Shown piece after piece: positions 15,242-37,398 of a DNA stretch of 64,000 bases. The position numbers and the translations under genes were made by a program. This stretch comes from Polyangia bacterium (lineage in GTDB: Bacteria; Myxococcota_A; Polyangia; Fen-1088). The notes under the pieces were generated by a model. It ran no database searches and was not told the DNA's origin. It saw only the letters and a program-made list of their open reading frames with translations. Numbering within the stretch: the stretch's first letter is position 1; the number at the start of each line of letters is the position of its first letter. The stretch covers positions 59,048-123,047 of the forward strand of contig DASRQZ010000213.1 of NCBI GenBank assembly GCA_035696125.1. Reading direction: 5' to 3'.

Positions 15242-16197
15242 GGGCCATCTCCGCGACGGGTTGCTGACTGCCCCGTCACGATAGCTTCGGCACGTTGTTG
15301 GTAGGCATTAAGGGCTCGATGAACGACCCCGGCGTACCGCGTCGGGTCGACCTGCCGATCGTCGAGGCGGACCTCGAAATGAAGGTGGGGACCGGTGGCC
15401 CTGCCGGTCTGTCCCACCCGGCCAATCTCCTGTTGGGCCGCGACCTTTTCCCCAGGGCTCACAAGCACTTCCGATGCGTGGGCGTACAGCGTCGTGACCC
15501 CGCCGCCGTGGTCGACCTCGACCGCGTTTCCGTACCCACCCCGCGGGCCGGTGCGGCGAACCACCCCCTCGCCCGCCGCCCGGATCGGATCGCCTGCCGC
15601 GGCGCGCAGATCGATTCCTGGGTGAAATTTGTCATGACCATCTATCGGATCGGGGCGGTGCCCGAAGGGGCTGGTCACCTGGTTCGGAAGGCCGACCGGC
15701 AAACCTGAGCCCGCGCCCTGCCGTCTTCCTGTCGCCGTCGCCGTCGGCGTCGGCGTCGGCGTCGGCGTCGGCGCGATCGATCCGGTGCTCGGGGGCGCCA
15801 GCGCCCCGAAGCCCGGCCGTGCGTGGATCAGCGACGGCGCTCGCGCCCTCGGGGCGCCCCCCTCGCGGTCGGGCGCCTCCGCCTCGGCCAGGACCTCGGC
15901 GCTCAAGGTCTCGTCGCTGGACTGGAGCGCCTGAGCCTGGGGGGCCTTGCCCGCATCGCCCAGCGAATCCTGCAGCAGGCGCGCGATGCCGATGCCGCCG
16001 CCCTTGGCGACCGCGTCGGCCATCGCTTCGATGAACATGTCGGCGCGCAGCTGGCCACCGGCCACGTCGGCCGGCTTGAAGGCGCCGCTGGCGCTGAGCA
16101 GCTGGCGCAGGAACGTCGCCTCCATCTGCTGATAGACGCCGGTGGCGTCGCTGACCGGTCCGTCGGCGGGGCCGATGCCCGCTCCCACACCCTTCAT
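15238..16197 (-). CDS. flgJ: FlgJ-like rod-binding protein fused to M23 peptidase, with (PT)n/(AT)n linker
   Basis: N-terminal rod-binding domain (GVYQQMEATFLRQLL). C-terminal M23 motifs (HPGIDL...GYGNAVEVDHGGGVTTLYAHASEV...GPHLHFEVR). The linker APTPTPTPTPTATATG is encoded by the hexamer array at 15731-15772. Confidence 0.8.
   Translation of the reverse strand: MKGVGAGIGPADGPVSDATGVYQQMEATFLRQLLSASGAFKPADVAGGQLRADMFIEAMADAVAKGGGIGIARLLQDSLGDAGKAPQAQALQSSDETLSAEVLAEAEAPDREGGAPRARAPSLIHARPGFGALAPPSTGSIAPTPTPTPTPTATATGRRQGAGSGLPVGLPNQVTSPFGHRPDPIDGHDKFHPGIDLRAAAGDPIRAAGEGVVRRTGPRGGYGNAVEVDHGGGVTTLYAHASEVLVSPGEKVAAQQEIGRVGQTGRATGPHLHFEVRLDDRQVDPTRYAGVVHRALNAYQQRAEAIVTGQSATRRGDGP
15731..15772. 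repeat. In-frame (GTCGCC/GTCGGC)7 hexamer array inside flgJ, encoding the PT/AT linker
   Basis: gtcgccgtcgccgtcggcgtcggcgtcggcgtcggcgtcggc on the plus strand; minus-strand frame CCG-ACG gives Pro-Thr. Confidence 0.9.
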
Positions 16198-17306
16198 CAG
16201 ATCACGTCCAGGTCGGCGTCGATCGCGCCGGCGGCCTTCATGGCCTGCAGGATCGCGATGAGGTCGCGCGGCGTCGCGCCGATCAGGTTGAGCGCCTTGA
16301 CCAGCTCCTCGACGGTCGAGGTGGCGGGCAGCGCGACCACCGGCTCCTTCTTCTCCTTGGCGTCGACCGCCGACTGCGCGCCCTGCGCCGTGCGGCCCCC
16401 GCGCGACAGCGCGTTCGGCTGCGAGACGTAGGGGGTCGTGAAGATCGAGATCGACAGTCCGCCGTGGGCGACGGCGACCGGCTGGATGCGCACCCGCTCG
16501 CCGGCCACCACCGTACCGGTGCGCTCGCTGACCACGATGCGGGCGCGCTGGTCGGACTCGACCTCCAGCGCCTCGATCGCGGTCATCAGGGCCACCGCCC
16601 TGCCCTTGTAGGCGGCCGGGATCTTGATCTCGACCGCGGCCGGGTCGGTGGCGCGCGCGGCGGCGGTGTCCTTGAGCGCGGCGTTGATCGCCTCGGCGAT
16701 GCGGTTCGAGGTTGTGAAGTCGGGGCGCTTGAGGCCGAGCACCATCGGGTCCTTTTCGAGGTTGGCGGTCACGGCGCGCTCGATCGTGCCGCCCGCGGGG
16801 ACGCGCCCCGAAGTCGGCTGGTTCTTCTGCATGAAGGAGCCGTTCGCGGTGGCGTCGAAGCCACCCGCCTGCACCGGGCCCTGGGCCAGCGCGTAGACTT
16901 GCCCGTCGGGGCCGGTGAGCGGCGTGATCAGAAGGACGCCGCCCGCCAGCGAACGTGCGTTGCCCATCGAGGCCACGCTGACGTCGATGCGGGTGCCGGC
17001 GCGCGAGAACGATGGTAGCCGTGAGGTCACCATGACCGCGGCGACGTTGCGCACCTGCACGTCACGAGGATCGATGCGGATGCCGAGCCGGCCCAGCATG
17101 CCGGCGATCGACTGCGAGGTGAAGAAGACCCGCTCGGTGTCGCCGGTCCCGGCCAGCCCGACGACCAGGCCGTAGCCGTAGAGCAGGTTCTCGCGCACGC
17201 CCTGGACCTCGACCAGCTCCTTGACCCGCACCGGCGCGCCGGAGGCGGCGCGGACGCCGGCCAGAGTGAGGACCGAGACCACCAGCAGGGAACACAGCTT
17301 CTTCAA
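16197..17306 (-). CDS. flgI: Flagellar P-ring protein FlgI
   Basis: 369 aa with signal peptide; FlgI signature throughout. Confidence 0.9.
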   Translation of the reverse strand: MKKLCSLLVVSVLTLAGVRAASGAPVRVKELVEVQGVRENLLYGYGLVVGLAGTGDTERVFFTSQSIAGMLGRLGIRIDPRDVQVRNVAAVMVTSRLPSFSRAGTRIDVSVASMGNARSLAGGVLLITPLTGPDGQVYALAQGPVQAGGFDATANGSFMQKNQPTSGRVPAGGTIERAVTANLEKDPMVLGLKRPDFTTSNRIAEAINAALKDTAAARATDPAAVEIKIPAAYKGRAVALMTAIEALEVESDQRARIVVSERTGTVVAGERVRIQPVAVAHGGLSISIFTTPYVSQPNALSRGGRTAQGAQSAVDAKEKKEPVVALPATSTVEELVKALNLIGATPRDLIAILQAMKAAGAIDADLDVI

Positions 17307-35863: not shown

Positions 35864-37398
35864 CGAACCCTCCCGGACAGGCCCAGCGCCAGCTTGCGGC
35901 GCAGCTCCTGGTCCTCGAAGCTATCCTCGAGGTAGTCCTGGAAGCGCGGCAGCGAGACCCGCCCATCGTTGGCGGGCGTGCCCTTGCGGAACAGGCGCGC
36001 CAGCAACCCGGCCTGACCGACCGGGTGCGGCTCGCCCGGATCGAGGCTGATGGCGGAGGTCGGGTTGGGGGCCTCCTCGACCTCGATCTTCATGGTCGGC
36101 TCGAAGGTCATCGCCACCGGGACCGCCCTGCTGGCGGGTGGCGGCGCGACCGCCAGCGGCGGCGCGCTGACCAGATCCGGCCAGGGAGTGGGAGTGGGCG
36201 CCGGCGGCGAGGCGGTCACGGCCGGCGCCCCGGCGGGCGACGTCAGCGTCGCGGTCACCATGGCATCCCAGGCGGCGTCCTCGGCCGCAGGCATCGACTC
36301 GATGATCCGGGCGGCCAGGCTCTCGACCTTCAGCTCGCTGGTGTCGGGCAGCTCCTGGAGCAGGGTGATACCTGCCTCGCTGGAGCCCAGGATCAGGCGG
36401 GTCCGCCCCACACGCGCCACCACCAGCGCCCGCTTGGGGCCCAGGCTGGCGGTCTCGAGAATCTCGATGTGCCGGGTGACCGTGCGCCGCCGGCGCGAGA
36501 AGAAGAAGGCCGCGATCGCCACCGCGAGGAAGGCCAGGCCGGCGAGCACCACGCGACCACCGCCCGCGCTGCTGGAGGCGGGCGGGTTGTTCGGCATTGC
36601 CGTCGGCGTCCGCGGGAGCGCCGCAGCCGCGGGAACGAGGGGGTTCAGCTTGGGATCGATCACGCCGACGCCGACGCTGACGCCGACGCCGGCGCCGCCG
36701 ACGACGGGAGACTGGGGCGCGACCTGGGCGGGTGAAGGAGGCCCGAACCTCAGATCACTGGCGACCTCCTTGGCGGGCGGCGCGATCGGCTTCGGGTTGG
36801 ACCCGGCCATGGGGGCGCCGGCTGTCTTCTTGGGGCCTGTGGCCTGGGCGGGCAGGTCGTCGCCGGCGTTCTCGTCGGGACCCAGCGCCAGCTTGGCCTT
36901 GAGCGCGGCGGCGTCGCTCGCCGACAGCGCCGCGGGGACCACGGTCCTGGCGACAGCGTCGGCCCGGGGCGCCGGCTTGAGCATCGCAGGTTCCTTGGCG
37001 CGCGCGACGCTGGGCCGCGACCCGCCGTCACACGCGACCAGCGCGCGCAGGCCACCGGGTGATTTCTCGAACTCGACCGGACCCTGGCAGGCGCCGTCGC
37101 CAAGCGGTATCGCCAGCTCGACTCTCAGCCGGTGTCGGTGGGCGCGAATCTCCTCGGCGCCCTCGGCGACGTCGTTGTCCCAGGCTCGGTTGGCCTCGCG
37201 CACACGCGCGTCCCGCACGTACAGATAGAGGCGGCCCTCGCCCAGCGTGGCGCTCGCCGCCTCCGGGTCGATCATCGCGTCACCCTTGACGGTGATGGCG
37301 ATGCGTCCGCCCTCACGCTCGGCGCTGACCTCGGAGATGGTGACCTGGGTAACCAGCAGACCCACGGGAATCAGAAGCGCAGCACCGATCATGACCAC
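35860..37398 (-). CDS. fliO: FliO-domain protein with long N- and C-terminal extensions (512 aa)
   Basis: Starts 28 nt after the fliN stop. Central TM (LAGLAFLAVAIAAFFF) + FliO-like region (RHIEILETASLGPKRALVVARVGRTRLILGSSEAGITLLQEL). A 290-aa N-terminal region follows a signal/TM. A Pro-rich C-terminus. An internal GVGVSVGVGV stretch is encoded by a hexamer array. Confidence 0.55.
   Translation of the reverse strand: MVMIGAALLIPVGLLVTQVTISEVSAEREGGRIAITVKGDAMIDPEAASATLGEGRLYLYVRDARVREANRAWDNDVAEGAEEIRAHRHRLRVELAIPLGDGACQGPVEFEKSPGGLRALVACDGGSRPSVARAKEPAMLKPAPRADAVARTVVPAALSASDAAALKAKLALGPDENAGDDLPAQATGPKKTAGAPMAGSNPKPIAPPAKEVASDLRFGPPSPAQVAPQSPVVGGAGVGVSVGVGVIDPKLNPLVPAAAALPRTPTAMPNNPPASSSAGGGRVVLAGLAFLAVAIAAFFFSRRRRTVTRHIEILETASLGPKRALVVARVGRTRLILGSSEAGITLLQELPDTSELKVESLAARIIESMPAAEDAAWDAMVTATLTSPAGAPAVTASPPAPTPTPWPDLVSAPPLAVAPPPASRAVPVAMTFEPTMKIEVEEAPNPTSAISLDPGEPHPVGQAGLLARLFRKGTPANDGRVSLPRFQDYLEDSFEDQELRRKLALGLSGRVR
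36658..36707. repeat. In-frame hexamer array inside fliO-like CDS, encoding (GV)n
   Basis: gatCACGCCGACGCCGACGCTGACGCCGACGCC...; the same GATCACGCCGAC start as the copies at 12024 and 60121. Confidence 0.85.

Follow-up and report, generated by a model that had tools for sequence, protein, structure and literature searches.

A dispersed hairpin element with hexamer-repeat arms as the probable source of dipeptide tracts in flagellar proteins of a Polyangia bacterium

This study analysed a stretch of 64,000 nucleotides (hereafter the window; contig DASRQZ010000213.1, positions 59,048 to 123,047, assembly GCA_035696125.1; 69.5% GC) from a metagenome-assembled genome (MAG) of a Polyangia bacterium (Myxococcota), in which tandem arrays of the hexamer GCCGAC, or GTCGGC on the opposite strand, lie in frame within three flagellar genes, namely a flgJ-like gene, a flgA-like gene and a gene for a FliO-domain protein (hereafter fliO), where they encode PT, AD and GV dipeptide tracts, respectively. 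We consider it likely that these arrays belong to a dispersed hairpin element with microsatellite arms that was copied, whole or half, into coding DNA, and that the encoded peptides are by-products acting as spacers. The original prediction had proposed, from the sequence alone, that one DNA module related to intergenic elements was captured in frame as linker material; the three tracts were located and translated as it had claimed.

The abundance of the arrays in the window is far above chance. Using (GTCGGC)3 with at most one mismatch as query, 33 matches were obtained in the window as compared with 0 in 100 shuffles, and the GCCGAC/GTCGGC class accounted for 11 of the 14 perfect hexamer arrays of at least 18 nt, even though outside arrays this hexamer ranks only about 45th in frequency. 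The inventory comprised seven intergenic loci and three in-gene copies. Relative to GCCGAC, the AD and PT tracts represent two frames of one strand and the GV tract one frame of the other. The arms are free of stop codons in all six frames (AD, PT and RR on one strand; VG, SA and RR on the other) and their codons are GC-rich. All three host open reading frames (ORFs) are continuous, and their homologues align on either side of each tract.

The seven intergenic loci consisted of two single arms and five pairs of inverted arrays separated by 21-40 nt (12028-12099, 22467-22562, 23634-23715, 40742-40830, and 53446-53541), and all five pairs fold as hairpins with energies of -67 to -80 kcal/mol and z-scores of -6 to -9. 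The first hairpin, in the spacer between the flgL-like gene and a flagellin gene (12020-12110; -75.9 kcal/mol, z=-9.2), reads GATCGATCAC (GCCGAC)4, loop, (GTCGGC)3 GTCACCGTGGGCG, and a syntenic copy follows flgL in the relative L081, where it starts at position 5351. The other four are located 9-16 nt past the stop codon of a GT2-TPR gene (22460-22570; -79.9 kcal/mol, z=-8.8), after a DUF4380-like gene (23625-23725; -66.9 kcal/mol, z=-7.2), after an HDOD gene (40735-40840; -75.1 kcal/mol, z=-8.3), and upstream of a cation-efflux (CDF) gene (53440-53550; -76.6 kcal/mol, z=-6.0). The single arms are (CGTCGG)5.3, 14 nt past the stop codon of a GT2 gene (7035-7066), and a degenerate copy at 60127-60162 that reads CCGATCAC GCCGAC GCTGAC GCCGAC GGGG. 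At six of the seven loci the distance to the preceding stop codon is 10-80 nt, and the neighbouring genes are mostly co-directional. An assignment of the array at 53446-53477 to the CDF ORF was rejected, the in-frame stretch being poly-Arg directly after a stop codon and the start codon likely lying downstream. Directly upstream of the degenerate single arm the 11-mer CGCCCCACGTG occurs three times (60086-60119). The loops of the hairpins are filled with GGATC/CGGAT motifs, which resemble dense, complex tandem repeats, (TCGGA)n and (GATCTGATCCGGTCC)n, located at 47224-47448 downstream of a H+-pyrophosphatase gene, where the periods are 5, 15, and 29 nt.

These copies define a family of dispersed palindromic elements of approximately 80-110 nt. 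Its consensus consists of a left half with CTTCCC, (GTCGGC)3-6 and GTC(A/G)GC GTGGGCGATC, a variable loop, and a right half with GATCG(A/C)(T/C)CAC, (GCCGAC)3-6 and GGGAAG. Metagenome contigs were scanned for hairpins with hexamer arms, which gave 20 loci; 13 of them carried the consensus, all on soil or rhizosphere contigs of about 70% GC. Six of the 20 loci (L092, L096, L099, L100, L107, and L108) were discounted since they lacked the family junctions and included other taxa or low-complexity proteins. Rfam gave no match across the whole window, and a full-text search of the literature for the repeat strings returned no paper on such an element. A reading of the hairpins as intrinsic terminators was rejected because of the missing U-tracts: a T-run follows none of the copies, and the terminator-like sites in 6900-24200 coincide with none of them.

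Membership of the in-gene arrays in this family was examined at their junctions, for which every array was oriented as GCCGAC. In-gene and intergenic copies have in common GATCGATCAC on the loop side and GGGAAG on the outside. Among 128,000 positions there are 10 occurrences of the pattern GATCG[AC]TC[AG]C, and three of these directly abut the 5' side of an array (intergenic 12020, fliO 36654, flgJ 15782); likewise, three of the 16 occurrences of GGA{2,3}GA[CT] abut the 3' end of an array (intergenic 40741, flgA 18794, flgJ 15729). Position weight matrices (PWMs) trained on 31 intergenic arms only yielded p=0.0004-0.04 for the in-gene junctions of the window and p=0.0003-0.0008 for orthologous in-gene copies. 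The reading of GATCGATC differs between fliO (ATC-GAT) and flgJ (TCG-ATC), so that the similarity of the junctions lies at the level of DNA and not of protein. A profile hidden Markov model (nhmmer) built from the intergenic hairpins alone recovered the fliO copy at near full length (model positions 17-98, E=4e-11) and the flgA and flgJ copies as half-elements (E approximately 1e-7), and a match at 29050-29145 (E=0.04) was rejected as a chance match within a gene. With common junctions and profile matches for all three tracts, the view of a single module, the same as in the intergenic elements and captured in frame, was supported.

The fliO gene (35860-37398, minus strand; PF04347, E=1.6e-10) encodes an N-terminal beta domain, a disordered linker of about 160 aa, a transmembrane (TM) helix and the FliO domain; at 512 aa the protein is an unusually long FliO homologue, and the architecture of beta domain plus linker is kept in relatives. 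Its array at 36662-36706 encodes the peptide GAGVGVSVGVGV. A second, opposite-sense arm remnant at 36600-36613 (GTCGGC GTCCGC, read PRTPTAM) had been overlooked in the original prediction, and because of this remnant the copy is regarded as a whole, partly decayed hairpin (36600-36706, minus strand). In plus-strand reading it consists of GTCGGC GTCCGC, a 50-nt loop that ends in GGGATCGATCAC, and (GCCGAC)5-7 GGGAGAC, and the order in the peptide is GAGVGVSVGVGV (aa 231-246), IDPKLNPLVPAAAALPR and TPT (aa 262-267). The element matches positions 17-98 of the intergenic profile with E=3.8e-11, with PWM values of p=0.0013 (inner junction) and p=0.0037 (outer junction), and its fold is not significant any more (z=-1.9).

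Complete copies were found at the same site in relatives. The orthologue in L088 (73% identity; from the sample shared with L081) carries (GTCGGC)5, a 53-nt loop and (GCCGAC)4 in frame, an intact hairpin of -86.9 kcal/mol that encodes GVGVGVGLGV...TPTPTPT. In L090 and L091 (57% identity) the hairpin is likewise intact (-79.9 kcal/mol) with (GTCGGC)5, a 60-nt loop and four GCCGAC-like units, and its left arm is read SASASASASA in contrast to GV in the window and L088. A further in-gene (GTCGGC)3 array, read SASASA, is located at 3687-3704 of L090, about 190 nt upstream of the hairpin; the hexamer was therefore taken up more than once by the same linker. The copy in L089 is degenerate (GVGTGV). 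Across the orthologues the arms have 2-7 units, and the loops of the window and L088 are clearly homologous.

The flgJ-like gene (15238-16197, minus strand) encodes N-terminal rod-binding helices, a long linker and a C-terminal M23 peptidase; the M23 match is strong (E=1.5e-33) and the Rod-binding match weak (E=5e-4), and its homologues are located between flgI and flgM. Between the two Pfam matches the array at 15731-15773 encodes APTPTPTPTPTATATG (aa 142-156). The half-element (15720-15785, minus strand) consists, on the coding strand, of the inner junction GGATCGATCGC, (GCCGAC)5 GGCGAC GGCGAC and the outer junction AGGAAGACGG, and is read CCG-ACG to give (PT)n; its PWM values were p=0.04 (inner) and p=0.03 (outer) and its nhmmer match E=3.6e-7. 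A hairpin partner was not found (fold z=-0.24), and a search for a decayed left arm within the insert gave nothing convincing. The orthologue in L083 (84% amino acid identity) lacks an insert of about 144 nt that contains the window half-element. The orthologue in L081 (81% identity) has GGGGATCGCTCAC GCCGAC GCCGAC GGGAAAAGCG at the same site, i.e., two units with both junctions, as compared with which the window has seven units and about 85 nt extra. The unit number across orthologues is thus 0 (L083), 2 (L081), and 7 (window). A contig scan with the FlgJ alignment was of little use: its patterns derived from the M23 domain, so that 79 of the 80 loci encoded M23 peptidases without relation to FlgJ, and only L001 was flgJ-like.

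The flgA-like gene (18201-18896, minus strand) encodes a signal peptide, the AD tract and a SAF/ChapFlgA domain. The ChapFlgA/SAF matches are slightly below threshold; homologues are named FlgA in the sources, and the gene order flgF-flgG-flgA-flgH-flgI is kept in L084. Directly after the signal-peptide-like N-terminus, the array at 18796-18824 encodes QADADADADADG (aa 25-34). On the coding strand the half-element (18786-18824, minus strand) consists of (GCCGAC)4 GCCGAT followed by the outer junction GGAAAGATGG and is read GCC-GAC to give (AD)5, with p=0.0004 for the outer-junction PWM and E=7.6e-8 for nhmmer. At the same site relatives have GCCCAC-(GCCGAC-like)3-4-GGGAAGATGG: in three of them (69-77% identity) GCCCAC is followed by 3-4 units mutated to varying degree, and then by GGGAAG/GGGAGA in L087 and L084 and by GGCGGA in L086. 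The window has five near-perfect units, and the unit number is 4-5 in four species.

The original prediction had placed the tracts in flexible linkers, or right after the signal peptide in FlgA, and this agrees with the structure models, in which the PT and GV/TP tracts fall in predicted unstructured linkers. In the AlphaFold model of FlgJ, helices span aa 18-83 and the M23 beta domain starts at about aa 200, and the PT tract falls within aa 81-197, which have a confidence score (pLDDT) below 50 and no secondary structure. The FliO model has strands in a beta-sandwich-like domain (aa 19-122; pLDDT 80-89), a TM helix (aa 282-303) and the FliO domain (aa 311-367), and the GV/TP tracts lie in the linker of aa 126-282 with pLDDT below 50. 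Both models are of low overall confidence because the alignments were shallow. For FlgA, the n-h-c pattern of the signal peptide suggests that the AD tract would form the mature N-terminus.

It had also been expected that the tracts would be lineage-specific and variable in length in orthologues. The tracts were lineage-restricted, and unit number varied between species in flgJ and fliO as given above; flgA alone, with 4-5 units in four species, comes close to the identical tract length in relatives that the original prediction had named as its refutation. Three strain pairs with 99.7-99.9% identity (L081/L082, L084/L085, and L090/L091) had identical in-gene tract lengths. The sole indel between L095 and L109 (99.6% identity) was one GCCGAC unit in a hairpin arm (L095 2171), and the sole indel between L090 and L091 was 12 nt in a (CGTCCT)n repeat between fliQ and fliR (L090 5686-5697). 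From these unit indels we infer that slippage in 6-nt steps occurs, and the comparison lends modest support to slippage of the hexamer arms. The description of the module as prone to slippage is only partly supported, by the one-unit indel in an intergenic arm but not by the unchanged in-gene tracts; the near-identical pairs, a small sample, gave no sign of hypervariability.

Mobility of the element, as had been proposed, is plausible. The syntenic 8.5-kb contig L084 lacks hairpins at both sites that match the window hairpins at 22467 and 23634; intergenic copies were therefore gained or lost between relatives. At the position of one window hairpin L084 has (CCTCGGA)5 (1967-2047). The hairpin at 40742 is enclosed in an envelope (40681-40868) with a unit of about 170 bp, 19-nt terminal inverted repeats (TIRs; 40690-40708 and 40841-40859) and the 9-bp direct repeat GTTGATAGC on both sides, the left copy of which contains the TGA stop codon of the HDOD gene. 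The TIRs are complementary at 19 of 20 positions (shuffle p=0.0005) and are the only two matches in the window, and a related right end stands alone at 53542-53565, after the hairpin at 53446. At the sequence level, 40681-40868 is a signature like that of a miniature inverted-repeat transposable element (MITE) at one locus. The element would have spread by transposition, recombination or template switching.

Most copies sit in spacers as very stable hairpins, typically 10-80 nt after a stop codon. In our preferred reading, whole or half copies would also have ended up within coding sequence, where they would persist only in linker regions tolerant of added residues. Their survival there would be due to arm lengths that shift in 6-nt steps, to arms that are stop-free in six frames with GC-rich codons, and to sites that are disordered periplasmic linkers (FlgJ, FliO) or a mature N-terminus (FlgA). 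The captured arms would then drift by frame-preserving replication slippage and decay by point mutation, such that the dipeptide repeats would be by-products acting as spacer residues. The encoded peptides are presumably neutral or just tolerated.

Several observations weigh against this reading. Alignments of the window with L084 and L091 in search of empty sites gave spacers that were not alignable and no clean empty site; a family-wide target-site duplication was not found, the flanking direct repeat being present at one copy only; and no transposase was among the 23 ORFs of the window scanned with Pfam. A gene between two hairpins (22597-23592) that was considered as a transposase or REP-associated tyrosine transposase (RAYT) was found to encode a DUF4380-like protein. 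The support for mobility thus consists of presence and absence in relatives and of one copy with TIRs and a 9-bp repeat, without a transposase, a clean empty site or a mechanism. The loop of the L090 fliO copy is unrelated to those of the window and L088, and the fliO copies may go back to a single ancient insertion or to several insertions at this linker. Loop similarity between intergenic and fliO copies was marginal (p about 0.02-0.06) and was not relied on. FlgA homologues with at most 62% identity have an unrelated linker of similar length, with no net insertion; on account of these distant linkers and of the 4-5 units in four species, the flgA tract is regarded as an old one whose length has hardly changed, and not as a clear net insertion, and it may have originated in situ. 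Finally, the host genome was viewed through the 64-kb window only.

A further-reaching version, which we put forward only tentatively, is that of an undescribed, high-copy 'coding-competent' hairpin element of flagellated Polyangia that, owing to microsatellite arms without stop codons in all six frames, repeatedly enters the linkers of exported proteins and gives rise to length-tunable PT, AD, GV, and SA linkers.

An unlikely origin of the tracts is that of independent microsatellites formed in situ, by local slippage of GC-rich codon pairs (GCC-GAC, CCG-ACG, GGC-GTC) and unrelated to the hairpins. All six codons are of GC-rich preferred types, the flgA tract represents no net gain in length over distant homologues, and other hexamer and heptamer microsatellites are present in these genomes. 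However, commoner hexamers form almost no arrays, the junctions on both sides are common to intergenic copies and are read in differing frames, fliO orthologues contain complete hairpins with inverted arms, and flgJ gained about 144 nt in one step relative to L083.

Selection at the protein level would make PT, AD, and GV selected linkers, for instance O-glycosylated PT, and the DNA likeness a result of codon preference. Exported proteins often contain PT-rich linkers, the same cluster encodes a PMT-family O-mannosyltransferase along with several glycosyltransferases, and many relatives likewise have TP tracts at the fliO site. This explanation is nevertheless quite improbable: the left arm at the same fliO site is read GV in the window and L088 but SA in L090, the arm in L089 is degenerate, an orthologue with 84% identity lacks the flgJ tract, and selection on the peptide would not preserve perfect hexamers, opposite-sense arms or shared junctions of non-coding type.

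It is very unlikely that the copies are maintained as functional nucleic-acid hairpins, e.g., for mRNA 3'-end protection, attenuation or translational pausing in flagellar operons with the peptide being incidental. The position of six of the seven intergenic copies shortly past a stop codon, mainly between co-directional genes, their extreme stability, and the hairpins that are still intact in the fliO genes of L088 and L090, although the proteins are only 57-73% identical, would fit such a role, and for the intergenic copies it is possible. Against it, the in-gene copies of the window do not fold (z=-0.2, -0.5, and -1.9), the L089 fliO copy is degenerate, the syntenic L084 spacers are without hairpins, and there is no U-tract after any stem, no coincidence with terminator-like sites in 6900-24200 and no Rfam match.

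The contingency-like variation suggested by the original prediction, i.e., hypermutable repeats for rapid, selectable variation of flagellar assembly proteins, is extremely unlikely because the 6-nt in-frame unit makes switching by frameshift impossible and in-gene tracts are identical in the three strain pairs, with only 4-5 flgA units across four species, even though unit number varies between species and one intergenic arm differs by one unit in near-identical strains.

The dispersed element was compared with known systems. Like the repetitive extragenic palindromes (REPs), their hairpin-forming doublets (REPINs) and bacterial interspersed mosaic elements (BIMEs), it is a GC-rich imperfect palindrome that occurs as inverted pairs in hairpins of about 100 nt and is dense in spacers just downstream of genes, without a U-tract. 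REPs and REPINs have a conserved GTAG-type head that is recognised by the RAYT transposase; the Polyangia element lacks such a head, having CTTCCC/GGGAAG and GATCGMYCAC as junctions and microsatellite arrays as arms, and a RAYT gene (Y1 transposase) was not seen within the 64 kb. To our knowledge, in-frame intragenic copies are not typical of REPs. With hexanucleotide microsatellites that encode dipeptide linkers the element has in common the in-frame slippage of copy number and the low-complexity PT, AD, and GV linkers between domains, but its repeats carry shared flanking junctions and opposite-sense partner arms, which tie them to a dispersed element and not to local codon slippage.

Judged by description, the closest analogue is the Rickettsia palindromic element (RPE), for which in-frame inserts in many genes (Ogata et al., 2000, 2002, summarised in PMC10969869) and a conserved peptide per element family (Ogata et al., 2000, summarised in PMC10969869) have been described. 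As far as these summaries go, both are dispersed palindromes that are located in spacers and in frame in unrelated genes, with the added peptide being tolerated. The Polyangia host has about 70% GC and belongs to another phylum than the AT-rich alphaproteobacterium Rickettsia, so that homology in sequence is implausible and the comparison is one of descriptions. The Polyangia arms are tandem hexamers able to slip in 6-nt steps, and at least four reading frames of the element are in use, giving low-complexity dipeptides in disordered linkers; as the window has AD, PT, and GV tracts and L090 an SA tract, a peptide conserved as in the RPE summary is lacking. Intragenic in-frame fusions are also known for ERIC, BOX and Correia MITEs according to the summary in PMC10969869. 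Compared with MITEs as outlined there, the Polyangia element is likewise a small, non-autonomous inverted-repeat unit, of which the hexamer arms themselves are the inverted repeats, and the 40681-40868 copy has 19-nt TIRs and a 9-bp flanking direct repeat; this signature is, however, found at one locus, most copies being a hexamer hairpin with short junctions.

Approximately 9-40 kb of the window is occupied by the flagellar gene cluster, as recognised by Pfam matches and syntenic contigs, with flagellins, flgL/K, flgN, flgM, flgJ, flgI, flgH, flgA, flgG, flgF, and fliJ on one side and fliL/M/N/O/P/Q/R, flhB, flhA, flhF, a ParA-type ATPase, and a sigma factor on the other. Myxococcota is a phylum known chiefly for gliding motility. 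The cluster in this Polyangia MAG (9000-40000) looks complete, and its FlgJ has an M23 peptidase and no muramidase domain. The flagellin genes are flanked (3338-8705 and 21129-22451) by genes for a PMT-family protein O-mannosyltransferase (5617-6966), one GT4, and two glycosyltransferases of the GT2-TPR type, which suggests that flagellin or proteins of the periplasm are glycosylated; Pro/Thr tracts are well known as substrates of PMT enzymes.

The best-documented cases of palindromic selfish DNA captured in frame come from Rickettsia, with its reduced and AT-rich genomes, and the Polyangia case would be one of such capture in a large, GC-rich, free-living soil lineage. Because its arms are microsatellites, a captured copy can keep changing in length with the frame intact, a route from junk hairpin to protein linker. 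The element does not indicate a new mechanism of regulation or phase variation; it yields dipeptide linkers and not on/off switches. Annotators should bear in mind that low-complexity PT, AD, GV, and SA tracts of such genomes may have been left behind by the element and need not be selected motifs. The hexamer repeat sites can also confound the assembly of MAGs. If the tentative 'coding-competent' version were true, the intact hairpins of -80 to -87 kcal/mol in the fliO genes of relatives would be translated through, and selfish DNA would regularly feed the evolution of linkers in a free-living bacterium of high GC content.

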